A stretch of DNA of 64,000 nt from a virus. Under the pieces are notes generated by a model. The model was not told the origin of the DNA, made no database searches, and was given only the letters and a program-made list of their open reading frames with translations. The stretch's first letter is position 1. Each line of letters begins with the position of its first letter. Below are positions 14,196-59,468 of this stretch, one piece after another. The position numbers were made by a program, and so were the translations under genes. The stretch is from positions 21,314 through 85,313 of IMG/VR virus record IMGVR_UViG_3300020582_000006; one strand, 5' to 3'.

Positions 14196-16578
14196 TCCTC
14201 CGTGCGCGGGATGTCGTGTTCGTCCTGGTCGCCGTGACACTCAGTCTCGCGATATGGGGGATCATCTGGCTCGCGAAACATCCCTGCACCCGCTCGGTGA
14301 CGCATCGCGTCTGGGTCGATCAAATCACGACTTACGTGGATACCGGCGGCGGGATGAGGAATGCGGACGGAGAGTTTATTCCCGGGACGGGAATCAAGGT
14401 ACCCTTCACGACACCGGCCCACTTCGAGGATCAAACTATCTGTATGGAGCGCCGCCCATGAGGAGTTACACCTACAGGCGCAAAGGAAACCGGCTCATCG
14501 ACGGCGATACGCCGCCGATGCCGCCGCCCACGCTTTCTCCCGCGCAGGAGAAGGCCGAACTGCTGCGCCTCGCGCGGCTTTGTGAAGAGGGCTGGTCGAC
14601 GATGACGGCGATCCCGCTCAAAGCCCCGCCGATGCCAAAGCGCAATTACCCGATCCCCGAACGCTGGCGGAGAGCTGTGTGATGCCACCTGTAACATCGC
14701 ATGTTACGCCTTTTCAGGCGATCCAGGTCCTGTTGTCATTACTCAGCCTGTTCTTTATTGTGATGGCGGCCTGTATCTCAGTCCGGGCCCTGCGCACGCT
14801 GAAAAAATTCATCAGGCTGCAGGGCCGCATCAACGATCTGACGGATGAGCGGCTGCAGATGCTCGAACGGGAGGAGTACCGGTGATAGCGGTCCGTGTGT
14901 TCCTGTCGATGACGCTGACCGTGCTCGCCGCGCTCGAGTGGTACACGGTCCTCGAGCGCGTCTCGCTCGACTGGTATGCGGACCAGCTGGTCGCTCAGGT
15001 GGAGATGGAGACGGGCCGCAAGTACCCGGCTGCCGCCAAAGCGCAGCTCTACGCCATCGTGAACAAAGCGCCGTCCTACTCGAAAGTGCTGCCGCCGGCG
15101 CTGGTCAACACCGTGACGGCCGCGGGCGCGTGGGCGCTGACATTCTGGGCGATTCGGCGCAGAGATCGCGAGGAACAGGAACAATCAAAACAAGATGACC
15201 TGCAGTTATTGCGACGAAGAGATTCTCAAACATGAGCCGGTCGGCTTCAACGGCTCGATGCATCAGGAGTGCGCCTGCCGGGCCATTATGGGATCTGCGG
15301 CTCACCAGATGCACATATGCCACTGCTTCGGCGGCCGGGGGGAAGACCCGCCTGAATTCACGGCACGCCAGGGCGCGAAACTGGCATGGGAGACGTTCCA
15401 GGCACTTAAGAAAAAGAGAGAACAGGCCAGCCTGAACTGAGATGAAGATCATTCACATACTCGGCACCGCATCAGGCCAGCCTCATCCCTATGACGACAT
15501 GTACCTGCTGCAATACGATCCCACCGTGCGCCCGGATGGTATGATCCTGCTCGAAGTCGTCTCGGATCCGGCCTGCGCCAAACGCTTCGCCGACGCCGGC
15601 GAGGCGCTCGAAGAGTGGCGGCGTTCCAACGGCAGGCTGCGGCCGGACGGGAAGCCGGATCGCCCGCTGACTGCCTTCACCGTCGATATTATTGACGCGC
15701 CATGACACGCAAACGAGTGGTCCAGATCCAGCGGCTGTCTATCTGTGAATGCGGCTTTCCGCTGCTCAAAGTGGAAATCGGGATCGGCGCTGAGTACACG
15801 ATCGATCTCGACAGCGTGAGCACGAACGGCTGGCACCTGAAGTGCGGCGGCTGCGGTACGGTGATCCGCGATATCACGACGGTGATGGCGTCGTCGACGC
15901 TCGATCCGAATCGTCCGCCCGCGCGCCTGCCTTACGCGATCTTTCTCGGCAGCCGCGTGGCGCCGGTCCTTACAACTCCCACCCGACAGGACAAAACCCA
16001 ATGACCGAACACGAAGTCATGATTTGCGCCCCGGCAGACGGGCTATGGACCATACCCGGCTCAGTTTTCGATAAGATCTGTGTGCGCTGCGCCGCGCCCG
16101 TCATGATGGCCCCGTCCGGCGTTCGTTACATGGAAACTCACACGGTCGAAGTGATCTGCATGATCTGCTTCGATCCGCAGGGCCGCGACCGCAACGTCGC
16201 GAAAAAGATCCGCCTGACCGCGCCGGTCAGCGTCATCAATGGAGAACTTATGAACGTCACCCGGAACTACCGCGCGAGGACCACGAATTGACGCCGCCGA
16301 TGGGTTACTCGCGGGCATCTGAAGCCGAAGATGCCGACGTGATCCTGCGCATGTCCGAAAACGACTACATCATGCTGCTGACGTCTCTGGGTATGGCTTA
16401 TGCTTCAGGCCTTCAGGAATCCCTGCCGATGATCAACCGCATCAACGCAGGCAATCCGGACTTTTCGCCGTATGAATCCTCGGAAGACCTCGAAGCGAGA
16501 GCGGCGCAGACGGTCGCGATGCTCCGGAAACTAATGGAAGGGACGGACTCATTTCATGTGGGAATGCGCTCAGTGTAG
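14192..16578 (+). other. Run of small, translationally coupled hypothetical genes (14192-14461, 14458-14682, 14679-14885, 14882-15235, 15195-15440, 15442-15705, 15702-16004, 16001-16291, 16288-16578)
   Basis: Mostly 4-bp start/stop overlaps. Several have TM helices or CxxC motifs. Confidence 0.6.
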
Positions 16579-17752
16579 TCTGACGCGAGAGAAGCCGGTA
16601 AGCCGGCCGCCGATGGGCTGGAAACGGCGCGGCAAAGCCATCTATTGCAGGGACTGCTGGCGCAAGCTCTACGTGCTGCGGGCTGTCACGATCCCGGTCG
16701 TGAGCCCGCTGACGCTCAAGTACAAAGCTGATGAAACGCTTCACCCCTGCGACTGGGATGAGTTCGGGAAACGCCTGCGCGAGCAATGGGCGCTGATCAC
16801 CCAGGCTTCCAACTGGATGATGACCGAGATGTACATGCGGGATGACCGGTCCCGCGACAAAGGCAAGCTGCAGCCGATGCCCGGCGTCTATCTCTATCCC
16901 GAGACGCGCAAACAGTTTCCCGGCATGGCCTCGCAGACCACCGCGGCCCTCGAGAACCAGATCGGCAAGAAATACCGGGCGAAGCGTTTCGATGTGATCT
17001 GGACCTGCCGCGCCAGCCTGCCTACCTTCCGCTACCCCACGCCTTTGCCGGTACCTCATCAGGCATGGTCAATAAGACTTGACGATAACTGCCCGCTCGT
17101 CTCCGCGCCTATTGGAGATGCGCGTGTCGAATTTCGCCTGCGCAACGGCCATCAGTTCCGCCGGCAGCTGCTCGCCGTGAAGCAGATCATCGCGGACGAA
17201 GCCGAACCCGGCCAGATGGATCTCTACCGCCAGGGCAAATCGGTGATGTGCAAGCTGGTCGCCTGGCTGCCGCGCCGTCCGGTCGAGACGAAGATCGAAG
17301 GCACGCTGTTCGTACGCGCGGATGCGCAGGCGCTGCTGGTGGCTCTGAACGTCAAGGATGACCGTCTGTGGACCTACCATGGCGATCAGGCGCGTCGATG
17401 GTCAGCAGCGCACCGCCGGTTGCTCCAGCGCCTTGCAGACGACAGCAAGGCCGAACACAGGCCCACTGTGCCTTTCCACGCGCGGCGCGAGGCCGCGGCC
17501 CTCAAATATCGGGATCGCATGTCGAGCCTGACTCACCAGATCGCCGCTATGACTGTGAACTACGCCTTACGGCGGAAGTTCGCCGCCGTGCGCTATGACG
17601 ACACCGCCCGGGACCTGTTCTGCCCCCACTTTCCCTGGCACATCCTGCGGCTGAAGCTCGCTGAGAAATGCGATGCGGCCGGCATCGAGTTCCATGCGGT
17701 GACACCCGGGGAACCGGAAGAAGTCTTGCACGAACCGGTAATGGAGGAGTAA
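16556..17752 (+). CDS. Nuclease-dead TnpB/Cas12f-like RNA-guided DNA-binding protein
   Basis: N-terminal Zn ribbon (CAQC...CRDC), S.PTFR.P.P and a bridge-helix-like region. THQIAAMTVNYA...AVRYDD and FPWHILRLKLAEKCDAAGIEF align by eye with the TnpB RuvC-II region. RuvC-I reads LFVRADA rather than GxDxG. The C-terminal Zn finger and RuvC-III are absent. Confidence 0.7.
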   Translation: MWECAQCSLTREKPVSRPPMGWKRRGKAIYCRDCWRKLYVLRAVTIPVVSPLTLKYKADETLHPCDWDEFGKRLREQWALITQASNWMMTEMYMRDDRSRDKGKLQPMPGVYLYPETRKQFPGMASQTTAALENQIGKKYRAKRFDVIWTCRASLPTFRYPTPLPVPHQAWSIRLDDNCPLVSAPIGDARVEFRLRNGHQFRRQLLAVKQIIADEAEPGQMDLYRQGKSVMCKLVAWLPRRPVETKIEGTLFVRADAQALLVALNVKDDRLWTYHGDQARRWSAAHRRLLQRLADDSKAEHRPTVPFHARREAAALKYRDRMSSLTHQIAAMTVNYALRRKFAAVRYDDTARDLFCPHFPWHILRLKLAEKCDAAGIEFHAVTPGEPEEVLHEPVMEE

Positions 17753-17915
17753 ACTTTTGGTTTCCGCGCCACCGACAGGCGCAGGCCGCTTATTCGCTGG
17801 AAACGCTTGCCGATCCAGTCGACGCGGCAAAGCTGCTGTTAAGGGTTCCTGATATGGGCGCAAGCCGCAGCCGGGAAAACGATCATTGAAAGCAGAATCG
17901 ACCGATTCGGTACAA
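17753..17915 (+). ncRNA. Putative omegaRNA/sgRNA-like scaffold plus guide
   Basis: Stems GTTTCC/GGAAAC, GCGCC/GGCGC, TTGCCG/CGGCAA and GCTGC/GCAGC, plus a GGC-GCAA-GCC tetraloop. The scaffold ends in ATTGAAAG (17885-17892), like type V repeat 3' ends. Confidence 0.45.
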
Positions 17916-17929
17916 GACACCGGGTAGCG

Positions 17930-19343
17930 GTCGTCTCGGCATCAACTCCGACTGCTGATCGGATCGGGCTTGTTGTGGGCCTCCTACCTGATCGTTCGGT
18001 ATGGCTGCTCGCGCGACGTTCGGGTGGGATTCGTTCGGTTCATATCTGGATTCGTTCGGGGGGCTCGCAACTCGTCGGATCGGCACAAGAGACGGCAGAT
18101 CGGTCGGTTGGAACAGCCAGATAGGTCGGGGCAACGCCGGATGAGGCTTTCGGGTGCTTAATCCAGATTCCCGTCGGGAAAGATGAGTCAACCGGTTCGG
18201 GGCCTGCTACCTGATCGGTCGGAAACCCGTCGCCGAACTGATCGGGAGATGATCGGGCGTTCGGGGGGATAGGTCGGGGTACTCGCAGTCCTCGGGTCGG
18301 GAATAGTTCGGGAAACGATCGGGAACTGATCGTGTCGGGTCTTGCATCTGTCCACCGTCTCGGGTTGCGAGTCATTCGTTCGGGTGGTCTCGATGGCTGG
18401 TCGTCTCAGGCCCTGAAAGACCAGATCGTTCGGGTTTCGCGGATGTGGTTCGTTCGGGTGTTGCATCTGCAACCATCGTTCGGGTTTTCAACTTCGTTTC
18501 GGCGGGGACTGTCGGACCACCGAAGGCTGGTCGTTCGGTCGCCACTGCCGCTCAGATCGTTCGGGACACAACTGGGAACTGATCGTGTCGGGTCTTGCAT
18601 CTGTCGATTCGGGATTTTCGGGTCACGACCATTCGAGATCGGTCGGGTGGGGCAAGAACAAGATCGGTCGGGGTAAGTAGCGAGATCGGTCGGTATCCGA
18701 TTTGTTCGGGTCTTTAACTCGTCCTCTGGCCTGTTCGTTCGGGGGATGTTAGCGGAGATCGGTCGGGCATCCTGGCCTGTTCGTTCGGGAAATAGCCTAA
18801 GCGGAGATCGGTCGGGCAACTTGAAAGAGGCCTCTGTATTTCGGGCACCCCGTCAAGGAGTTCGTTCGGGGATATATCGGCCGGGAAATGGACAAGCCGG
18901 CGTCGAGATCGGTCGGGCTGTAGCAAGGAGTGCCGGTCGGGTCGGTGGAATCAGCAGCCGAAGCTATCAGGCGTCGAGATCGGTCGGTCAAGGAATGGTT
19001 TTTGATCTTTCGGGGCCTGGGCGAAATATCTGCAATCGGTCGGGGAAAGATTTGGATCGTTCGGTTCGCCGCGACCGTACCGGGCGTCGTGATCGGTCGG
19101 GCCAAGCTCATGATCGGTCGGGCTGTGGAGTGATTTCATCGGGATTACCGGCGTTTGCGTGATCGGTCGGGATTTGTTCGTCAGTGAGGATCGGTCGGGG
19201 CTCGCGCTGTTCCCAGGCTCTCGTCAGCGGTCATCGGGATTACCGGCGATCCGGGTCGGTCGGTCAGAAAAAGCTCGAGTGCCTTTTTCCGGCGGGGTGT
19301 TTCAGCGGAGCTTTGTTTCGGTTCAATGAATTGATCGTTCGGT
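17930..19343 (+). repeat. Strand-biased array of ~55 degenerate (GA)TCG(G/T)TCGG(G) motifs with variable spacers, period mostly ~21-27 bp
   Basis: TCGG cores at 18035, 18056, 18080, 18104, 18126, 18150, 18174, 18197, 18219, 18242 and onward to 19339, on the + strand. No credible ORF. Confidence 0.85.
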
Positions 19344-19420
19344 ATCTGTCACTTTTCCACAGGTCGGCGCGCCGACTACTGGTTCTTTCTACAGGAGTTA
19401 ATACAGGTCAATAAGGAAGG

Positions 19421-19516
19421 GCGCCCCTAAATCTACGTATGCGCGCCCCTAAATCTACGTGCCCGGGTTCGCATCGCATTGATTCGACTGAAACCAAAGC
19501 GCCCCTAAATCTACGT
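19421..19516 (+). repeat. RepA iterons (3 x GCGCCCCTAAATCTACGT), probable oriV
   Basis: Identical 18-mers at 19421, 19443 and 19499, just past the repA stop. DnaA-box-like TTTTCCACA at 19353. Confidence 0.8.
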
Positions 19517-19534
19517 GCAAAAATGCAGAGATTC

Positions 19535-20521
19535 TCAGGGTTTTCCTCGTTTCCCCGCTGCCGGGCGAATCGCCTGGCCTGGTCGGACGACGAGGAAATC
19601 GGCCGTCAGCTCTGCCGGACACGCAGGCCAAAGTCCGCGAACGGTATCCATCCATTTCGATATCTGTTCCCGGAATCGACGTGGTCGCGCGTAGTCTATT
19701 ACCCCTAATTGAAATTCCAGTCCCGCTTCTCCGAATATGGGGATGAGTTGCTCCTGCGTTGCCGTGAAGCAGCGCCAGATGAGCCAACACGTGAAATCCA
19801 GTGCGCCCGGAGCATGCGCCAGCTGCCGGACTATGTTCATATCAATCGGGATCGGGTGGTTTTTTACTTCGTTCCAGAACTGCTCTGACAGCACGATGAC
19901 GTTCTGAAAGTCTTCACCCGGCAATCCGGGGTGGTCGCCGTTTGAATACCAAAGCCGCATCTGATCGAAGAAATTGAACCGTGACCGATCGATGTATCTG
20001 GCCTGTCCTCTTGTGCCGTCGGTACTGAAGTAGATCGTGGCATCAAAAAGGCGCTCGAAGCCCTCGACGATGCGTTTGTAGTGGAACCCGCTGGTACTGA
20101 GTCCGAACTCGCGGAGCATCTCAGCTGCGCTGTCGAAGGTAACGCGTCGGTTCTGTTTGATCACAGCAAGAGTACTGATCCATAAGGGAATAAGCCGGTC
20201 CTGACCGAAGGGAAGCCCCAGTTTGGAAGTGGTCGCTATGCGTAATGAGAACCGCCCGTTGACTCGCGTATACTCCTTGACCCCTGCAGCTGGCCGCCGG
20301 ATAGGAAGCCCGCACAGAACGAATGGACGCGTGTTATAGCCTATCGATTGTCGGCCTTCCTCTCTCGCCGCCCGGACCAGTTCGATACCTTCGACGCGCT
20401 TCTGAAATTGCTTTGATACGCCACGAAGTTCGCGTCGGACCGGCTCGGCTGGAAGATCCAACCCGTTGACGAAGTCCGTATCCCCTGCTCTCACCAATGC
20501 CGGTTTTATGTTGTCTTTCAT
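19535..20521 (-). CDS. repA: Plasmid replication initiator protein A (RepA_C-like family)
   Basis: FVLCGLP.RRP, R.NG, GLPFGQDRL, V.LSE.F..E...HPIPID and ALD...WL..R motifs. ATG at 20521 overlaps the upstream stop. Adjacent iterons. Confidence 0.85.
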   Translation of the reverse strand: MKDNIKPALVRAGDTDFVNGLDLPAEPVRRELRGVSKQFQKRVEGIELVRAAREEGRQSIGYNTRPFVLCGLPIRRPAAGVKEYTRVNGRFSLRIATTSKLGLPFGQDRLIPLWISTLAVIKQNRRVTFDSAAEMLREFGLSTSGFHYKRIVEGFERLFDATIYFSTDGTRGQARYIDRSRFNFFDQMRLWYSNGDHPGLPGEDFQNVIVLSEQFWNEVKNHPIPIDMNIVRQLAHAPGALDFTCWLIWRCFTATQEQLIPIFGEAGLEFQLGVIDYARPRRFREQISKWMDTVRGLWPACPAELTADFLVVRPGQAIRPAAGKRGKP

Positions 20522-20883
20522 AGCTCGTGGCACTCGAACAGACTCCCCTGGCTGTAGATGGAACGTAACGCCTCGCGCGGGATCTCCCATGCTGGCACAC
20601 TCGCGTACTCGATCTCGGGCAGCAGCCACAGCTGGCCGGACTCGCGCGCCCGCCGGCGGCGCATGACGGCGATCTTATGCCGCGCGTCGGCCCGGGAGTG
20701 GCAGGGAGCGCAGCGGATCCGCACGCTCGATGTCCGGGGATCGTGCGTCTCATGCGTGAGCTGCACGTACCGCGGAATCGGGCACAGACAGTCGCGGCAG
20801 ACGGCGCCGCGCGAGGCGATCAGGGCCAGCCGGTACCGCTGCCACTCCGGACCATAGAACTGCCTGTAAGACGCCCGGATCAT
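20518..20883 (-). CDS. HNH-like endonuclease
   Basis: Y..EW, CRDC, LTHETHDP and C..CH...D motifs. Confidence 0.6.
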   Translation of the reverse strand: MIRASYRQFYGPEWQRYRLALIASRGAVCRDCLCPIPRYVQLTHETHDPRTSSVRIRCAPCHSRADARHKIAVMRRRRARESGQLWLLPEIEYASVPAWEIPREALRSIYSQGSLFECHEL

Positions 20884-21149
20884 CGCTTTACGTGGGCTCT
20901 CTTCTTCCCAAGCGGCACTGTCGGCACAATCAGGCCGGACAGTATGTCGGCTTCTCTCGCCAGCGCGATCGGATTGGGCCGCACCGCTCCCGTGAACCAG
21001 CTGGAAAGCCCGGCTGCAGCTTCGGCGCAGCCTGAGCACAGTGTTTCGTCATGCCACGAGCACGGCGGATCGCAGGCGTTCTCTTCCGTGCAGGCGCAGA
21101 CTCTGCAGGCACGTTGTTTCGGCTTCGCCGGGAGGCGCGGTTTTCTCAT
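20880..21149 (-). CDS. Small Cys-rich phage protein
   Basis: CRVCACTE.NAC...CSW....LCS.C motif. Confidence 0.6.
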   Translation of the reverse strand: MRKPRLPAKPKQRACRVCACTEENACDPPCSWHDETLCSGCAEAAAGLSSWFTGAVRPNPIALAREADILSGLIVPTVPLGKKRAHVKR

Positions 21150-34393: not shown

Positions 34394-36187
34394 TTAGCGG
34401 GATGCTTTCTTCTTTGCGGTGGCCACTTTCCTGACTGTGGCCTTAGCCTTCTTTGCGGGTTTTGCTTTGTGCTTCGCCGCAGTCTTCACTGCGGGTGTTT
34501 TCGGCGCGGGCTCTGCCGGGGACTTACCGGCTTTCTTCGCCTGGGACTTCAGCCGCGCCGCCTTGAACACCTCGCGCATGCGCATGCCGATCTCGTTCTC
34601 GATGTTCTTATGATCGATCCCGAAGACGTTCGCCGCCATGTCGAACCGCTTCCTCTCGTCGCCCGCGCTATAGAGTTGCTCGCGCGCGCAGTCCTGCAGG
34701 GCGAGCCCGAAGATGATCTTCGGCAGCCAGTCCGATGCCGGTGACCCTTTCTCGGCCAGAATCATCCGGCGCAGTTCGGCGGTGACATCGCTCGACGAAC
34801 GCTTGCCGGCCTCGAGGCCGGGGAACTTGAACACGTCGAGCAGCTCTGGCGGTGTCATGTGCTTGAGCAGCGCGAGCGCGATGATCTGCTGCTGACTATG
34901 AGGAACAGCCCAGATGTAGTTCTTGCCGTTCACCGGCTCATTGCAGATATCTTCGAGGACCTGACGCCGCGCCGCCGTCTCGATCTTCTCGCCCAGTTTC
35001 TTTTCTTTCTGCGCCCAGAAGTCCACCTTGCCTTCGGGAGTTCGCGACGTGTGCGAAGCAGGCCGGTAGTTGTGATGGAGTGAGCACTGCTGATTGCGGC
35101 AGACCTGAATGATGGTTCCCTTGCCGGGATTGTCCACATAGATCGCCTGTTCGGTATCGGGACAGTTCTTGACCTTGCCCTTCTTGTTGGCAACGACCTC
35201 GGCGTAGGTGTCGCGGCCTATGGCGTTTTCGCCCTTCGCCGGATTGTAGTTATGGCTGATGCGGACCAGCTCGACGCCTTCGTCTTTCTTCACCTGAACG
35301 ATCTGAATGAAGTGGGCCTCGGCCTTCGCCGCGTAGCAGTCCCGGTCGAGGCAATGATCGCCGGCCCGCACATCGTCGAACAACTGAGCGTTGGCCGCGC
35401 TGCGCTTGGGGCATGTGATGCAGGCGCCCGCGGCCGGGATCAGTTCGGCGTCGTCCTTGGCCCAGGGCGCAGCCGCCAGATCGAGCAGGATCTCCGCGTC
35501 GATCAGATCGTCGAGATGAGCCACGGTGACCGCGTGTACGGTCCGGTCGTACTTGTAGCCCTGACCGGGCACGAACTTGCTGCCGCCCTCTTCATAGAGC
35601 AAGTGCTCGAGGACATGCCGCTGGCTGGCTTCGGGAAGCCGCGCGAGGCGCTGCGCGTGCCCGACGTGGATCTTCTCGGCGATGAAGTCTTCGCGCAATT
35701 CGGGGATCAGATTGACCAGCGCCATGCGTTTGTAGACATAGGCGACGTTCTTGCCCACGCGATCGGCGATGGTCTGCGCCGTGTAATTCGGCTGGCTCAT
35801 CAGATGCCGGAAGCCGTCCGCCTCTTCGAGCGGGTGAACGTCTTCGCGGATGAGGTTCTCGACGATCTGGATCTCGAGCACCTGCTGGTCGTCGAGATCG
35901 CGCACGATGGCCGGGATCTGGCCCAGTTCCGCTTCCAGGGCCGCGCGGTAGCGTCTGCTGCCCACCACGATCTCGAAGGCCTGCGGCCCCCTGTTTCTTA
36001 CCAGGATGGGCTGCACGATGCCGACAGAGCGAACGCTCTGCACCAGTTCATCCATCGCTGTCTTGCGCCAGGTCTTGCGCGGGTTGGTTGTCGATTCCGT
36101 GAGCCATGCGAGAGGAATACTCTCGTATGCCGGTGTGAGAGCTGCAGCCGTGGCTTCAGCAGTATTTGCTCTGGTCGTTTTGGCCAT
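34394..36187 (-). CDS. parB: ParB/RepB/Spo0J family protein (long, with Zn-binding region and Lys/Ala-rich tail)
   Basis: NPRK, GIVQPILVR, IVVGSRRYRAA and ENL.REDVHPLEEA motifs, plus an HTH. Confidence 0.85.
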   Translation of the reverse strand: MAKTTRANTAEATAAALTPAYESIPLAWLTESTTNPRKTWRKTAMDELVQSVRSVGIVQPILVRNRGPQAFEIVVGSRRYRAALEAELGQIPAIVRDLDDQQVLEIQIVENLIREDVHPLEEADGFRHLMSQPNYTAQTIADRVGKNVAYVYKRMALVNLIPELREDFIAEKIHVGHAQRLARLPEASQRHVLEHLLYEEGGSKFVPGQGYKYDRTVHAVTVAHLDDLIDAEILLDLAAAPWAKDDAELIPAAGACITCPKRSAANAQLFDDVRAGDHCLDRDCYAAKAEAHFIQIVQVKKDEGVELVRISHNYNPAKGENAIGRDTYAEVVANKKGKVKNCPDTEQAIYVDNPGKGTIIQVCRNQQCSLHHNYRPASHTSRTPEGKVDFWAQKEKKLGEKIETAARRQVLEDICNEPVNGKNYIWAVPHSQQQIIALALLKHMTPPELLDVFKFPGLEAGKRSSSDVTAELRRMILAEKGSPASDWLPKIIFGLALQDCAREQLYSAGDERKRFDMAANVFGIDHKNIENEIGMRMREVFKAARLKSQAKKAGKSPAEPAPKTPAVKTAAKHKAKPAKKAKATVRKVATAKKKASR

Positions 36188-36247: not shown

Positions 36248-38013
36248 TCAGTCTCGCGACTGAGTCAGGTCGACCGGGATAGCGCCGATGAATTCGAAAC
36301 CCATCGTTGCGACGCGGTGGCATTCTACGCCCGCCGGATTCTCGATCATGAAGTAATCGCCCACGCTGGCGGACGGCCCTTCGAAGTCGATCTCTTCGCC
36401 TGAGCCGCGATTGAACCGGGCATAGGCCATGTTGAGCGAATCCTCGACCCGGTAGGGCGGCGGAGGCGTTACGGTGGTGGCCACATAGCCTTTGGGATCA
36501 AAGGCATTGCGTAAGAAGTGCACTTTCGGCATTTTCTGTCTCCTATTTGAAAATCCGGTTCCAGCAGTCCGGGCAGAGCCCGGTCAGGAACATCTCCCGC
36601 TCCTCTTCGGGAACATCGGACATGACATCCTGAATGGTCCCGCCCAGTCGCCATGCCGCGATTTGCCTCGCGGTGGCTGTTACAGGCCGATCCTTCCTGC
36701 AATCGACGCAGGTTAGAGTGATGCCTTTCGGCTCTTCCGGACCGCGTTGCCAGGGCACCGGGTCGCCGATGCGGTTCTCACGAAATGAGCGGTGCATGAT
36801 GAGCGCACTCCGGTATACACCCTCTTTCGTGAAGGCCGGATGGTTGTAATTGAAGGTGTCGGCGGTGCGCCGCGCGAGCCCTTCATAGTCGCCGGCCAGC
36901 AAGAGCGCGTGGCATTGAGCGCACGCGGCCCAGTCTTCCCGGCTCGCGGCCCCGGGCGCCACCAGGAAGGTCTTCGCAGGCCAGTTAAAACTGACCTGCG
37001 GGGATGAGCAGAAATCGCAAATGAAGTCAGCCATTGTCTCCTCCTTCGGTGTCGGCAATAGTTCTCACAAATCCTTCCACCATCGGTTGCCAGTTGAAGG
37101 GTGGCCACTCGGCGGGAAAGTTGCTGTCCGGAAAATGCGCGCCGATGATTCTCCAGAATTCGCCGCTCGCGGTCCGGACCGCGAGTTCGACCCGGTCTTC
37201 CATCGTGGCCACCTTCACTTCGGCGGCGCGGAGTAGGATGGGAGGCGAATCGTCGTATCCGTCGAACTCGAACGGTTCGACCTCGATCATTGCCGGTTCC
37301 TCGGCGGGCGTCTGGTTGTGATCCCAGACCGTCGCGATCACTTTACCGGCGAAGCGTTCTTTCTCGCCGGGCCAGATCACGATGTCTCCGATTGCCAGGC
37401 GATCTCGCTTCGCATAGGGACTGAAGCCGCCCTTGCGCTGCCACTCATCGAGCGCGAGGGCCAGTTCGGACAGCCGCGCGGCCTTCGCCGCCAGGTCCGC
37501 ATAGTCGATGTCTTCTCCCCGGTCGTTGATCGCCTGAATTTCCCGGGCGAGCTCGATCTGTTCTTTCAAGTTAGCGATAGGGTCCACAGGCTTATTCCTT
37601 TGCTCGCGGAAGCGGCGCGATCGAGGCTTCCAGACCGTGGATCGGCAAGGCGTGCGCGGCCAGCAGCCGGAAGGTCGATTGTTTGTATTTGCGAGCCAGA
37701 ATTTCCGCCTGTTTCTCGCTCAGCGGCTGGCCCTTGTCGGAGCCCACCGCGATGAGCTTGTTGTCTGCCGTCTGCAGTATTACGATGTGCGTTTTCATTT
37801 TTGTGCTGTGTTGTCTCCTTTTAAAAATCGTTCCGCCTCTTCGCGGGATGAGAATGCTTTGCCGGTCGAGCCCGCGGTATAGAGCGTGCCGAATCGGGTA
37901 TGTACCGGGCGGATCGGGTTCCCCTCCAGGTATTCGACCAGCGCCTTGTTATAGGCGTCAGCGCCGATCTGTTCGATCAGCGCAAAGCGTTCTTCGGGAC
38001 TGTCCCAGTTCAT
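36248..38013 (-). other. Cluster of small hypothetical genes (36248-36532, 36543-37058, 37027-37587, 37592-37798, 37795-38013)
   Basis: Compact ORFs with RBSs in the leftward operon. Confidence 0.55.
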
Positions 38014-39152
38014 TTCTTCTTTCCTTTCAGCGGGTCGATACCGTCTTTGAAGCGGAGTTGCTTGCGCGTGCATTCCTCCGGGCTGACATCTTCGCGCACC
38101 CCTTTCAGACGGGCCTGCACCAGCGAGCCCTGGCAGTACAGATACTCGACTTCGATGATCTGGCCGACCTCGGGCACTTTCTTGCCGATGATCGAGCAGG
38201 AGCCGATCTCCGTGCCGTCGAACAGGCTGAAGGTAATCGACTCCTTGCCGTTCGCCGTGTTGTTCGCGGTCACGATGACGGAGGCTGACGCGGTGAACTT
38301 CCAGCGCAGATTGTCGCCGCCGCGCGAAGGCCTCCCCGCTTTGTACGGCGCTGACTTCTTCACGAAGACCACGCCTTCGGCGTGCTGGTCTCTGGCATCC
38401 TGAATCAGCCGCGCTTTGTCCGTACAGGTCTGAGCGCCCTGAACCACTTTGATCTCAGGCGTCAGAACGATTTTCCTGAGCATCTTATGGCGGGATTCGT
38501 AGGGTTCCTCGCGCAGGTCCTTGCCATCCACGAACAGAAGATCGAAGGCGTGGATGGTTTCGCCTACCAGTTCGCCGTCGATCACGAACTGCGTCGGCCT
38601 CAATTCCTCGAGGGATTTTTTGAGGGCTGCGGGGACCGGCCTCACTCGCGCTGACCGTCCGGAGAACAGATGGATCGAAGGATAGTCGTTCTTGCCCGCC
38701 GAGCGGAAGTGCAGCTGCACCCGGTCGCCGTCGTGTTTGATCTGGACCCACCAGTCGCTGTCGTGGATCAGTCTGGCTTTGTCGGCCTCGTCGATATCGT
38801 TCAGGAGGCGCACCGGATAACAGACCGGCGCTTCACCCACCTGTCTGGTCACCGGCTTTTTCACCGGCTCGAGCGCCGGTTTCATTTCGGCAGTCGAGAT
38901 GACCTTGTAGTGGCTGTCTCCGTGGATCTTGTCCGATTGCAGCTGCTCGAAGATCGCCTGCGCCCTTGCGAGCGGTACGGGTTGTTTCGTTTTAGTCGCC
39001 GTGCGGACTACGTCGCCGATTGCGCCATATTCCACATTGACCAGATAAGCGTCCTGTCCCGCCGGGACCAGGAAGATCGTATAAAATTTACCACCGGATT
39101 TGCTGTCCGCTTCGAGGCGAACCGCTTGTGCCGTTCCTGCCTGTGCTGTCAT
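38010..39152 (-). CDS. WGR domain fused to ATP-dependent DNA ligase-like domain
   Basis: N-terminal WGR domain. Ligase motifs K.DG.R (QIKHDGDR), IDGEL, AFDLL, EGVVF and WKF, then a C-terminal OB-like region. Confidence 0.85.
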   Translation of the reverse strand: MTAQAGTAQAVRLEADSKSGGKFYTIFLVPAGQDAYLVNVEYGAIGDVVRTATKTKQPVPLARAQAIFEQLQSDKIHGDSHYKVISTAEMKPALEPVKKPVTRQVGEAPVCYPVRLLNDIDEADKARLIHDSDWWVQIKHDGDRVQLHFRSAGKNDYPSIHLFSGRSARVRPVPAALKKSLEELRPTQFVIDGELVGETIHAFDLLFVDGKDLREEPYESRHKMLRKIVLTPEIKVVQGAQTCTDKARLIQDARDQHAEGVVFVKKSAPYKAGRPSRGGDNLRWKFTASASVIVTANNTANGKESITFSLFDGTEIGSCSIIGKKVPEVGQIIEVEYLYCQGSLVQARLKGVREDVSPEECTRKQLRFKDGIDPLKGKKK

Positions 39153-39202
39153 GTCTGATGCTCCTGTATTGTTTGTGTGTTGTATTGCTAAATACAATTA
39201 TA

Positions 39203-57960: not shown

Positions 57961-58073
57961 TGATCTCTTATGCTGAAGTACTTCCTGATCGGCGAAGCCT
58001 GCGGAATCGCGACGGTGTTCCTTGGCGCTTATCTGCTGTACCTCTACTTTGACCGCCGCTGGTGAAACGAATT

Positions 58074-59468
58074 ATGAAGACGAACACTGCCCCCGCTTAC
58101 TCGCCACCGCCTCGAACCCATGAGGGCGCGGTCGCGGATCGCATCACGCCGCTCCAGCAGCTGCGGCGCAGCGTACTCACGTGCCTCCTCTGGGAAGACA
58201 ACTTCTATGAGTCCGGCGCTGCAGTCGCCGCACGCATCGCGGATCTTTGCACGAAAGTGAAGCCGGAAGACATTGCCACGCTCGCCATCGAAGCGCGTGA
58301 GGCGATGAAGCTGCGGCACGTTCCGCTCTATCTGGCGGTCCAGCTTTCGAAGCGCAAAGGTTATGGCTCGCTGGTCACCGACGTTCTCGACAAGATCGTT
58401 CAGCGCGCCGACGAACCGGCCGAACTGCTGGCGATGTACTGGCAGGACCGCGCGGCGAAGTTCAAAGACATCGACGGGCGGCGGCAGGGTGGCGCGATCT
58501 CGCACCGCGGCATCAAGACCGGCCTCGCGAATGCCCTGCATCGCTTCAACGAGTACCAGCTGGCGAAGTGGCGCGGCGACGACAAAGCCGTCAAGCTCAG
58601 GGACGTGATTCGCCTCGTTCACCCAAAGGCGTCCAGCCCCGCGCAGGCCGATCTCTGGAAGCGCGTCATGAAAGGCGAACTCGCTACTCCCGATACCTGG
58701 GAGGTCGAGCTGTCCGCCGGCAAGGACAAGCGCGAGACTTTCACGCGCCTGCTGACCGATAACAAACTGGGCGGCCTCGCCTTGCTGCGCAACTTGCGCA
58801 ACATGGAACAGGCGGGCGTCGACCGCTCGCTCGTCTCGACCCGGCTCGAGCAGGGCGTCGAGCGGGCGCTGCCGTTCCGCTTCATCACGGCGGCTCGCTA
58901 TGCGCCGAACTACGAGCCCTCGCTCGAAATTGCCATGTTCAAGGCGATCGAAGGCATGCCGAAGCTTCCCGGCAAAACCGGGCTGATGGTCGATGTCTCC
59001 GGTTCGATGGACGGCCGGATCAGCGCCAAGTCCGAAACGACTCGCATCGACGTGGCTGCGGGCCTCTCGATCCTCGTGCGCGAGCTGTGCGAGACGGCGG
59101 TTCTTGCGACTTTCTCGGATCGGGTGGTCGCGATCCCGCCGCGCCGTGGCTTCGCGCTGCGGGATGCGGTTCTCAATTCGCAGCCGCATCATGGTACCTA
59201 TCTCGCGCAGGCGCTGGCAACGATGACCATTCAGCCCGCGTGGAAGGATATGGACCGGCTGATCGTGCTGACCGACGAACAGTCGGCGGACGGGATCTCA
59301 CTCGGCAGCGTGACCGGTCTCGCTTACTGCGTCAACGTGGCCTCGAATGCCAACGGCGTCAGCTACAAGAACGGCTGGCAGCACATTGACGGCTGGTCGG
59401 AAGCGGTTCTGGACTACATTCGCGAGATTGAAATTGAAAGCGCCAACGAAACCAGATCCCAAAGCTGA
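58074..59468 (+). CDS. Ro60/TROVE-domain RNA-binding protein with vWA domain
   Basis: THEG, LLWED.FYE, DEYQ-like NEYQLAK, TPDTWEV.LS, ALLRNLRN, LPFRF, MIDAS DVSGSM and TDEQ motifs. Confidence 0.9.
   Translation: MKTNTAPAYSPPPRTHEGAVADRITPLQQLRRSVLTCLLWEDNFYESGAAVAARIADLCTKVKPEDIATLAIEAREAMKLRHVPLYLAVQLSKRKGYGSLVTDVLDKIVQRADEPAELLAMYWQDRAAKFKDIDGRRQGGAISHRGIKTGLANALHRFNEYQLAKWRGDDKAVKLRDVIRLVHPKASSPAQADLWKRVMKGELATPDTWEVELSAGKDKRETFTRLLTDNKLGGLALLRNLRNMEQAGVDRSLVSTRLEQGVERALPFRFITAARYAPNYEPSLEIAMFKAIEGMPKLPGKTGLMVDVSGSMDGRISAKSETTRIDVAAGLSILVRELCETAVLATFSDRVVAIPPRRGFALRDAVLNSQPHHGTYLAQALATMTIQPAWKDMDRLIVLTDEQSADGISLGSVTGLAYCVNVASNANGVSYKNGWQHIDGWSEAVLDYIREIEIESANETRSQS

Follow-up and report, generated by a model that had tools for sequence, protein, structure and literature searches.

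The window, a 64,000-nt stretch of viral DNA analysed here, encodes a nuclease-dead, C-terminally truncated Cas12f-like protein that is followed on the same strand by a conserved, covarying guide-RNA scaffold and by a long tract of mini-repeats (Table 1). Protein and scaffold together very probably form an RNA-guided DNA binder that does not cut its target. The explanation as a whole, an RNA-guided repressor of the dead Cas12f type, is favoured with moderate confidence; its further element, in which the scaffold also serves as a tracrRNA for guides carried by the mini-repeats, is tentative. The carrier is a soil phage-plasmid of the myovirus type.

Table 1. Features of the dCas12f-like locus and its neighbours, in window positions
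Feature	Position	Strand	Basis
Gene for 398-aa nuclease-dead, C-terminally truncated Cas12f-like (dCas12f-like) protein	16556-17752	+	Structure and profile matches
N-terminal CxxC...CxxC zinc-ribbon extension, residues 1-39	16556-16672	+	Cys conservation
Guide-RNA scaffold, ~146 nt, six helices	17766-17911	+	nhmmer profile, covariation, RNA contigs
Terminal hairpin of scaffold, tail TTCGGT	17869-17911	+	Family alignment
Predicted first guide, 16 nt directly past scaffold tail	17912-17927	+	Position only
Mini-repeat array, ~60 units	~17936-19343 (1.4 kb)	+	Motif counts, same architecture elsewhere
Relic of full hairpin repeat (CGGGAAACGATC, loop, GATCGTGTCGGG)	18309-18339	+	Read from sequence
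Three iterons (GCGCCCCTAAATCTACGT), 18-20 nt, plasmid origin; neighbour, not part of the system	19421-19518	+	Direct repeat family D10
RepA_C-type replication initiator; neighbour, not part of the system	19535-20629	-	PF04796, E 2.8e-10

A Cas12f fold with an inactive RuvC site

The sequence-only reading had proposed a TnpB/Cas12-like ORF with a dead RuvC domain and had suggested a structural comparison. This ORF is real, and its nearest fold is that of Cas12f. Foldseek and VIA-align, applied to the AF2 model (pLDDT 92.1), both reveal the bilobed WED-REC-RuvC architecture of miniature Cas12f, with the RuvC domain dead and truncated. Foldseek matches AsCas12f (8j12_B, E 2.5e-17), which VIA-align superposes over 321 residues with Z 23.3 and rmsd 5.1, while dCas12f 9n9c aligns over 322 residues with Z 19.0. 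Scores across Cas12f chains range from Z 16 to 23, and those across TnpB chains from 12 to a best value of 13.6. Profile searches agree, matching Cas12f 9nzq (E 3.3e-8) and, in the PDB, Cas12f-type chains exclusively; PADLOC calls the protein Cas12u3 (5.9e-11).

The intact D-E-D triad of RuvC is lacking, as there is neither a RuvC-I acid nor a RuvC-III motif. The RuvC-I site reads V253-R254-A255-D256, as first noted from the sequence, and 38 of 45 relatives have R at position 254, whereas none has D or E there. The segment earlier read as YDD corresponds to Y347-D348-D349, with D349 invariant in the 45-sequence comparison, and the W..L and GI motifs close to the C-terminus are conserved. The protein ends about 25 residues past the RuvC-II strand, before RuvC-III and the zinc finger; it has no C-terminal Cys cluster or TNB zinc finger, and the C-terminal 42-52 residues of the 10 sequences compared contain 0-2 Cys each and no CxxC pair. 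At the other end, the zinc ribbon proposed earlier is borne out by its cysteines, C4 and C7 being kept in 43 of 45 relatives and C31 and C34 in all 45. This extension lies outside the Cas12f-aligned part, since the VIA alignments begin at about model residue 39-41.

The search gave 327 homologues; of the 120 listed, not one carries a Pfam domain. Counted as cluster representatives at 50% identity, the family numbers 1243 at E<=1e-3, 995 at 1e-10 and 674 at 1e-30, the last figure describing a large, unnamed clade. The window protein combines a Cas12f fold with an inactivated, truncated RuvC, and a conserved guide RNA is encoded next to its gene; in the broad sense it is a dCas12f.

The scaffold RNA and the guides of relatives

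The scaffold begins just past the stop codon of the gene, and the structured element reported there from the sequence is a conserved RNA that matched no family in an Rfam search. The nhmmer scaffold profile yielded 110 matches, every one on the plus strand, and homologues do carry this downstream RNA: 83 of 92 loci have it within 500 nt downstream of the gene, in each case on the strand of the gene. Compensatory changes support 25 of the 29 predicted pairs. Paired cells make up 93.7% of the alignment, compared with 30-45% in slid controls, and compensatory cells number 374 against 51-68; none of 500 shuffles reached the observed pairing.

Of 65 scaffolds, 18 lead into a CRISPR-like array of 36-nt repeats, the first of which is the scaffold's own terminal hairpin; 80 of the 100 spacers extracted from these arrays measure 34-37 nt. 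The repeats of relatives stop at the TTCGGK tail, and guide-target matches start after it, the guides being 16 nt long, or about 35 nt in the CRISPR-like arrays. Family members range from single guides through tandem copies of the whole scaffold to repeat-spacer arrays, and a search of three records, each incomplete, revealed no Cas1.

Chromosomal relatives carry, directly past the scaffold, 16 nt that match outer-membrane-protein genes nearby. Six matches with at most two mismatches in 16 nt were obtained, whereas 20 shuffles gave 0.5 on average and 4 at most. These fall into four independent groups, all with the 5' flank TT[TG] (5'-TTK). The targets are an OMP_b-brl_4/CarboxypepD_reg gene, matched at its start codon (L039 and L043), a BBP2 porin gene (L007) and a DcaP-like porin gene (L074), in each case on the coding strand. 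Because 16-nt guides match TTK-flanked sites in nearby outer-membrane-protein genes, the family looks like RNA-guided repressors of the dCas12f/TldR kind, and these pairs in relatives support the RNA-guided binder proposed earlier as the best reading of the sequences. With targets on the coding strand, inside genes or where they begin, repression fits better than activation, and by analogy the window protein is likely to act as a repressor.

According to this model, the Cas12f-type protein would bind DNA under RNA guidance without cutting it. Its guide RNA would consist of the scaffold, with a last hairpin ending in UUCGG(G/U), followed by the guide. Transcription would most likely be repressed by the protein sitting on the template strand, as judged from TldR and dCas12f; CRISPRi with dCas12a offers an analogy for repression from that strand.

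The mini-repeat array and its possible roles

The 1.75 kb downstream of the gene contains the scaffold, the array and the iterons that the sequence-only reading had placed there; the only ORFs between 17753 and 19534 are low-complexity and repeat-derived. The array had been described as non-CRISPR, a description that does not hold: its unit, GATCGKTCGG(G/T), is the 3' half plus tail of the family's CRISPR-type 36-nt repeat, reduced to the last 9-11 nt. The motif TCGKTCGG occurs 36 times in the window (9.5 expected), always on the plus strand and 29 times within 17992-19342, and TCGG is found 80 times on the plus strand and 7 times on the minus strand of 17900-19420. The approximately 65 TCGG cores are most often separated by gaps of 19 nt (10 gaps) or 16 nt (8 gaps). 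The motifs persist, whereas most of the intervening sequence is unique, and some units are recent duplicates, including a 46-nt period repeated twice and the direct repeat D6, a 50-nt pair (18303-18352 and 18556-18605) with 90% identity. A second, more decayed relic of the hairpin repeat lies inside the duplicated block 18556-18605.

Mini-arrays occur in five loci only, namely the window, L012, L106, L018 and L002. In the latter four, the motif is the 3' end of each locus's own repeat and the mini-repeats sit distal to full repeats; plus-to-minus counts of 15:1, 9:2 and 8:1 were recorded among them. Most of the five loci are phage-like, with the window, L012 and L018 coming from virus records and a capsid gene next to L002; at least three of the four besides the window are phage-borne.

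In soil metatranscriptomes, contigs over 17770-18829 (scaffold and array) appear in all four RNA runs, which were picked with this stretch; these contigs, which carry no information on processing, RNA ends, strand or level, start at 17770-17773 in three runs, and one spans 17770-18309 without a break. The gene has only three short contigs, and repA has none.

The preferred explanation would place the scaffold and about 60 mini-repeats in one transcript. Each mini-repeat with the following 16-21 nt would form a minimal crRNA and pair in trans with the scaffold, at the 5' half of its terminal hairpin; the scaffold would thereby serve as a tracrRNA for dozens of short guides of the phage. The window mini-repeat pairs with that 5' half at -8.7 kcal/mol, compared with -7.1 for the cis 3' half and -6.2 for shuffled sequence; the duplex is short (6+4 bp), and for the G variant of the motif the pairing is not clearly above chance, 67 of 500 shuffles being as low. 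Across the mini-array loci, pairing in trans equals or exceeds that of the cis 3' half in four of five and is marginally worse in L018; four of the five results reflect common descent and do not count as independent.

No target emerged for the guides of the window: the rest of the 85-kb genome contains no match of at least 14 nt to them, and anchored matches of 9-12 nt are not in excess with or without TTK. A comparison with the other 110 loci returned nothing, and guide 1 has three one-mismatch matches in 301 genomes against about 24 for a reversed control. With targets absent from the phage genome, host genes such as those for receptors or outer-membrane proteins, or else rival elements, would be the place to expect them. 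The earlier proposal of many short guides stays the leading reading, and that the mini-array supplies working guides is put forward tentatively. A further extension is rather unlikely in its full form: that soil Acidobacteria-type phages carry an ultra-compact multiplex array, in which one scaffold serves dozens of tags with guides of about 16 nt, silencing many host genes or allelic variants of receptor and outer-membrane-protein genes for superinfection exclusion or host takeover, and that this array is a living intermediate of the tracrRNA/crRNA split.

The lack of targets is also what would be expected if the scaffold and the first guide alone worked and the mini-repeat tract were a functionless remnant of a CRISPR-like array, decaying or expanded by slippage. 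Trailer ends of arrays decay, which agrees with the distal position of the mini-repeats in the other four loci, and the tandem duplicates in the window fit slippage. This alternative is nevertheless judged unlikely, since the tract is transcribed, about 60 motifs keep a single orientation around mostly unique sequence, and the repeat is truncated at the same point in five divergent loci. The window motif, moreover, differs from the cis copy yet complements the 5' half of the scaffold hairpin.

An improbable alternative treats the array as a DNA-level cis element (iteron-like copy control, a centromere or handcuffing), with RepA, ParB/RHH or even the dead Cas12f as the binding protein. The array adjoins the iterons and repA, its repeats are uniformly oriented about 20-25 bp apart, and the same replicon carries ParA with RHH and ParB-like genes. 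Against this, the other four mini-arrays stand beside unrelated genes (resolvase, radical-SAM/methylase/integrase and unknowns) and no RepA; their motifs track each locus's CRISPR-type repeat, not a replication protein, and in the window the tract and the scaffold share a transcript. The near-identical element L033 retains the array but has another replication module: its RepA, also of the RepA_C type, is only 30% identical, and different iterons occupy the same place. Compared with the window, the array of L033 shows insertions or deletions the size of a unit as well as exchanged blocks, the first-guide position included. A motif tied to Rep or Par, as in plasmid iterons and centromeres, is therefore not what these loci display. 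The link to RepA is not supported because it is confined to the window lineage and the RepA module is swapped in L033, and the closeness of the array to the origin is incidental. The suggested role in replication or segregation is likewise unsupported. Of the three elements whose conservation was to be checked, the scaffold is widespread and the mini-array recurs, while the repA neighbourhood does not.

It is very improbable that the array RNA acts as a decoy or sponge whose repeat-tail mimics titrate a family protein of the host or of the phage itself. RNA anti-CRISPRs built of repeat mimics are known, mini-arrays lie mostly on phage-like DNA, and Bryobacterales and other Acidobacteriota MAGs carry chromosomal members targeting outer-membrane-protein genes; the phage, however, has a protein and a scaffold of its own, encoded ahead of the array within a single transcript, and the motif follows the phage's own repeat. 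Targeting of the array itself by the guide RNA, suggested by AATCGACCGAT at 17896-17906 being the reverse complement of ATCGGTCGGTT (inverted repeat I4), so that CGACCGAT as part of the guide would be the reverse complement of the array core, is hardly credible, as the family alignment puts CGACCGAT in the 3' strand of the terminal hairpin, guide-target matches in relatives begin past the tail, and the array motifs have no TTK flank.

Significance and relation to known systems

Natural RNA-guided transcription factors of the dead Cas12f/TnpB type have been a topic for two to three years, with few characterised clades. The family described here adds a large clade with a defined scaffold, guide length and flank motif and a coherent outer-membrane-protein target class. 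Its members extend from single guides to true arrays (Cas1 in 0 of 3 incomplete records), and a phage-borne form has the repeat trimmed to its last nucleotides. If the mini-array units are used, they would be the most compact natural multiplex guide format known and would directly model how tracrRNA and crRNA separated. For CRISPRi, a 398-aa binder whose guide is 16 nt long and whose flank is a simple TTK is of practical interest as well.

The claim of a new RNA-guided system was overtaken by precedent, nuclease-dead Cas12f with CRISPR-type guides having been in print since 2025-26 (PMC13472631). As presented there, rpoE-unlinked dead Cas12f lies beside CRISPR arrays (Hoffmann et al., Nature 2026, PMC13472631, Extended Data Fig. 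1a,b) and shares with the present family the Cas12f fold, a C-terminal truncation removing part of RuvC, a covarying putative gRNA upstream of the CRISPR array, predicted transport or envelope targets (RND efflux there, outer-membrane proteins here) and a proposed repressor role. By description, the published example comes from a Chitinophagaceae MAG, whereas the present family is of Acidobacteriota/Planctomycetota type and phage-borne; the text passages of PMC13472631 make no mention of mini-repeat arrays, an N-terminal zinc ribbon or phage-plasmids. The dCas12f-sigmaE system of the same source (9n9c, 9n9m) is likewise described with a Cas12f that is dead and truncated, and with one guide RNA encoded just downstream whose guide lies at the 3' end. 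It shares only about 12% identity with the window protein despite the structural match, has an operonic rpoE (ECF sigma with a C-terminal extension) and recognises a 5'-G TAM instead of TTK (PMC13472631). At the window locus, neither the ten upstream ORFs nor the downstream window genes yielded a sigma or HTH partner, and none appeared among the neighbours of 8 other loci scanned; the reported absence of tnpA, cas1/2 and Tn7 genes also holds for the ten upstream ORFs and the downstream genes scanned, which contain no sigma-factor gene either.

TldR, as described in 10.1101/2023.11.30.569447 and PMC13622181, resembles the present family in its dead RuvC, the loss of the C-terminal ZnF/RuvC part, a gRNA beside the gene, short guides (9-16 nt), prophage carriage and surface or transport gene targets; its guides of 9-11 nt are a precedent for short guides. 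TldR loci are described with one gRNA, in contrast to the repeat-spacer arrays of many members here. The window protein is nearer Cas12f (Z 23) than TnpB (Z 13.6), which argues against the TnpB descent that marks TldR, and guide-target pairs were found as four independent TTK-flanked groups in relatives and not for the window.

Cas12f proper (type V-F / V-U3) gives the best structural and profile matches and shares the T-rich 5' flank and 36-nt repeats; the present protein differs from it in lacking the RuvC-I acid, RuvC-III and the TNB zinc finger, and its scaffold is fused to the first repeat, whereas Cas12f uses a separate tracrRNA. CreA/CreR and the natural single guide tracr-L are likewise repeat-derived RNAs with short or partial guides, through which a Cas effector represses instead of cutting. 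Each of them consists of one unit, either with two degenerate repeats or in a long tracr form, whereas the window array strings together about 60 tandem units that retain only the 3' half of the repeat.

The Cas12f-type protein and the genome that carries it

No family of Pfam, PHROGs or NCBIfam was assigned to the 398-aa protein, and none of the 120 listed among its 327 homologues (about 380-410 aa) carries a Pfam domain. A profile of 45 homologues recovers 1243, 995 and 674 cluster representatives (50% identity) at E<=1e-3, 1e-10 and 1e-30, respectively, and matches solved chains of Cas12f (9nzq, E 3.3e-8) and of its nuclease-deactivated form (9n9c, E 8.2e-4); PADLOC gives Cas12u3 at 5.9e-11 and Cas12f at 7.3e-10. 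The AlphaFold2 model is confident (pLDDT 92.1), and the Foldseek comparison that the sequence-only reading had proposed places AsCas12f chains at the top (E 2.5e-17, TM 0.60-0.62). VIA-align superposes 321 residues on AsCas12f (Z 23.3, rmsd 5.1), with lower Z-scores for dCas12f (19.0), TnpB (13.6) and Cas12k (about 13). In the HMM alignment, R254 of the segment 'VRAD' stands at the aspartate of the Cas12f RuvC-I motif 'GVDMG', and D348-D349 at the RuvC-II 'ED', which we take to be the catalytic motifs of Cas12f. Position 254 is arginine in 38 of 45 relatives and acidic in none; D349 is invariant, and 37 of the 45 have D or E at 348. The chain ends 42-52 residues past the RuvC-II position, and the Cys cluster is absent. 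Because the RuvC-I position is never acidic, the chain ends early and the cluster is missing, the protein is, as judged from these motifs, a dead, truncated Cas12f-type protein, in agreement with the earlier proposal of a nuclease-dead Cas12f/TnpB-like product. Residues 1-39 form a conserved CxxC...CxxC ribbon beyond the Cas12f-alignable part. Four acidic residues (D96, D296, E300 and D349) are invariant in all 45 relatives despite the destroyed canonical RuvC site; D296 and E300 belong to a DDSKAE motif that forms the tip of a helical hairpin, and RNA processing or partner contact are possibilities for their role.

The gene lies in a single virus record of 85,313 bp, whose final 64 kb make up the window. 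This record has genes for a major head protein, a tail sheath, a baseplate hub and wedge, and a lytic tail protein. RecT, a small integrase-family protein, a ligase and a ParB-like protein are encoded as well, as is a ParA and RHH pair, and three iterons accompany an initiator of the RepA_C type. By this gene content, it is a myovirus-type phage-plasmid. No credible gene lies in the 1.78 kb after the protein gene; next come the iterons and then repA on the minus strand. A DNA similarity search of 16556-19540 against plasmids and phages gave no matches, a tRNA search of the window and eight loci found none, and a promoter scan found none; two terminator-like sites are present, fewer than in shuffled sequences.

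The downstream scaffold and guide targets among relatives

Alignment of ten loci revealed a conserved block 3' of the stop codon, and its nhmmer profile gave 110 matches in 111 loci and the window, every one on the strand of the gene. Among the 92 loci with at least 250 nt of downstream sequence, this scaffold lies within 500 nt in 83 and farther off in two more. RNAalifold on 65 scaffolds yields 29 pairs in six helices, 25 of them with compensatory changes. This alignment holds 65 of 73 distinct stretches for compactness and leaves out those of L033, L001, L005 (two stretches), L027, L042, L037 and L038:5050 (L-numbers denote loci carrying relatives of the protein). Paired cells amount to 93.7% vs 30-45% with slid partners, and compensatory cells to 374 vs 51-68 in the slid controls, values that none of 500 shuffles reaches. 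Support for the structure comes from this covariation, the single-sequence fold being non-significant (z -1.64). The structured downstream RNA, for which the sequence-only reading had proposed a test of conservation among homologues, is thus upheld by its recurrence and strong covariation. No Rfam family matches the scaffold; the sole match, M23, is sub-threshold, on the minus strand and inside the gene.

The terminal hairpin of 18 scaffolds among the 65 is found again downstream, as a 36-nt repeat; of 100 spacers that were extracted, 80 measure 34-37 nt. Therefore, the scaffold represents a tracr-like part fused to the first CRISPR-like repeat. Elsewhere, loci have a single scaffold and guide, or between two and four complete scaffolds, and Cas1 was found in none of three records searched, all of them incomplete. 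The complete copies, in tandem or nearby (L005/L080, L060, L038-L040, L015 and L066), constitute several whole single-guide RNA genes per protein gene. Some guides are common to several loci, such as GATCGCAATCAGG in L006, L078 and L073.

With the guide defined as the 16 nt past the hairpin tail, each locus was searched allowing up to two mismatches. Six guide-target matches were obtained vs a shuffled mean of 0.5 and maximum of 4 in 20 runs, and they represent four independent groups (L081, L007, L074 and L038/L039/L043). Their immediate 5' flanks are TTTG, ATTT, CTTT or ATTG, and the match ends at 16 nt in three of the four groups. In the chromosomal relatives L039, L043, L007 and L074, the matched sites are TTK-flanked and lie in the outer-membrane protein and porin genes of the table. 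Coding-strand matches of this kind are what an RNA-guided roadblock repressor would be expected to show, suggesting repression of these genes.

Other resemblances were also recorded. The first spacer of L081 resembles the reverse complement of a tRNA 3' end, as is also seen in L084, and matches with two mismatches a tRNA-like remnant 0.8 kb downstream with a TTTG flank; ARAGORN called no tRNA there, and the remnant could be that of an att site or a real target. The L001 guide has three two-mismatch matches in its own genome, one with an ATTG flank, and the control also has three. Spacer 5 of the viral L031 array contains a 22-nt palindrome that recurs 4.5 kb upstream on the same contig; this match is internal and does not run from the 5' end of the spacer, so it was not counted as a target and probably reflects an operator or terminator motif common to the two sites.

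Features of the window and of loci carrying relatives of its Cas12f-type protein
Feature	Locus	Position	Strand	Detail
Cas12f-type protein gene	window	16556-17752	+
Scaffold, window copy	window	17766-17911	+	nhmmer profile
Full-hairpin repeat relics (two)	window	18309-18339; within 18556-18605
Iterons	window	19421-19518
ParB-like protein	window	34394-36187		597 aa
ATP-dependent DNA ligase-like protein	window	38010-39197
phrog_850 'RNA-binding protein'	window	58062-59468		468 aa
CarboxypepD_reg + OMP_b-brl_4 outer-membrane protein (TonB-type), 1136-1142 aa	L039; L043	8188; 1029	coding strand	guide match at start codon
BBP2 porin	L007	5124	coding strand	16-nt guide match
DcaP-like porin	L074	2804	coding strand	16-nt guide match
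First spacer	L081	7321-7356		resembles reverse-complemented tRNA 3' end
tRNA-like remnant	L081	8101-8134
Spacer 5	L031	4945-4980		viral array
Upstream palindrome site	L031	421-444
Mini-array	L012			about 29-35 copies, GCGCTCCGG-like units; closest viral relative, 61% identity
Mini-array	L106			about 15 mini copies of CGGTGCGAC, after 4 full repeats
Mini-array	L018			about 8 mini copies, after about 13 full repeats
Mini-array	L002			about 9 mini copies, after 3 full repeats

The mini-repeat array of the window

Downstream of its scaffold, the window carries a dense array of short repeats. TCGKTCGG occurs 36 times in the window vs 9.5 expected, always on the plus strand and 29 times within 17992-19342, and TCGG in 17900-19420 occurs 80 times on the plus strand vs 7 on the minus. 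About 65 cores were parsed; the most frequent gaps between them are 19 nt (10 cases) and 16 nt (8 cases), and the gap sequences are mostly unique. In its extended form, GATCGKTCGG(G/T), the motif corresponds to the 3' strand and tail of the repeat of the family, and two full-hairpin repeat relics remain in the array. An alternative in which the guide would be complementary to the array is contradicted by the alignment of the family. Four further loci share this architecture of the array, the motif in each being the 3' end of its own repeat; L012 and L018 come, like the window, from virus records, and L002 adjoins a capsid gene.

The near-identical L033, a metagenome contig on which the C-terminal part of the protein is identical, shows how the array varies. 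The scaffold is the same and the first-guide segment is replaced; the arrays differ by unit-sized indels bounded by the motif, with blocks either identical or wholly replaced. The L033 RepA, likewise RepA_C, is only 30% identical, and the iterons differ (GCGCCCCTAAATCTACGT in the window region 19421-20629 vs GCGCCCCAAAGTGCCCGT at L033 2560-3680), with flanks on both sides 94-99% identical. This difference constitutes a replicon-module swap, probably with a change of incompatibility. Since the array is kept while RepA and iterons differ, it travels with the dead Cas12f gene and not with the replicon. Apart from the L033 RepA, neither RepA, ParA nor other window proteins were found beside the gene in other loci, and the genes downstream of the four other mini-arrays are mutually unrelated, none being RepA. 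A link with replication or segregation, as had been proposed, is accordingly not supported, the array following the Cas12f gene and the other mini-arrays having no RepA beside them.

The terminal hairpin resembles a natural single-guide fusion, in which the anti-repeat (5' half), loop, repeat (3' half), tail and guide follow one another. The mini-repeat is the repeat half alone and could pair in trans with the 5' half of the scaffold. In the window, the predicted duplex of the T variant reaches -12.1 kcal/mol (17 of 500 shuffles as low) and that of the G variant -9.4 kcal/mol (67 of 500), compared with -8.4 for the cis 3' half. By unit means, mini-repeats equal or beat the cis half in four of five loci, are marginally worse in L018, and outperform shuffles by 2-5 kcal/mol at every one of the five, a comparison that is independent of simple descent in the window's case only. 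These predicted duplexes weakly back trans pairing, and the modal gaps of 16 and 19 nt fit the 16-nt guide length of relatives.

Transcription was assessed by comparing 15500-21000 with four soil metatranscriptome runs from four studies. All four runs, which were chosen with this stretch, contain contigs that overlap the scaffold and the proximal array; together these extend over 17770-18829. One unbroken contig covers 17770-18309, so the RNA libraries contain scaffold and array as one piece; three contigs begin at 17770-17773, assembled contigs carrying no information on RNA ends, strand, processing or level. The protein gene has only three short contigs from one run and repA none, gaps that are uninformative alone. 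A loose end at 18354 in one of these runs (X12) reads like the L033-type array variant; therefore, both array variants seem present in RNA libraries from these soils.

Searches for targets of the window's own units gave no signal. Exact matches to its own genome include none of at least 14 nt and seven 13-mers, about the chance number, and anchored 9-12-mers show no excess with or without TTK. Comparison of the array tracts from six loci with the full set of loci gave 15-nt matches only (E about 0.5-1), and 68 putative 16-nt guides from the window and L033 gave 22 matches in other loci vs 26-42 when shuffled, none with TTK. The predicted first guide (17912-17927) has no matches in 5 genomes, and in 301 genomes of one order it has three one-mismatch matches vs about 24 for the reversed control. 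That no target was found for any window unit counts against reading the mini-array as working guides.

Relation to known nuclease-dead regulators

The sequence-only observation as a whole was confirmed. The fold, the scaffold and the guide-target matches of relatives support the core of its proposal, a protein that binds under RNA guidance without cutting and is accompanied by a conserved RNA. The suggestion of a new RNA-guided system is not supported: the system belongs to the recently described nuclease-dead Cas12f/TnpB regulators and is therefore not categorically new. In the parts of the literature that the search covered, supplements aside, the family size, the fused scaffold-array organisation, the outer-membrane-protein targets and, above all, transcribed phage-borne mini-repeat arrays were not found. 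A CRISPR-associated dCas12f has been briefly reported, with guides that match efflux-gene promoters (PMC13472631), a parallel to the guide-target pattern of the present family. TldR has short guides, prophage carriage and surface or transport gene targets (10.1101/2023.11.30.569447), and it parallels the present family in all three respects.
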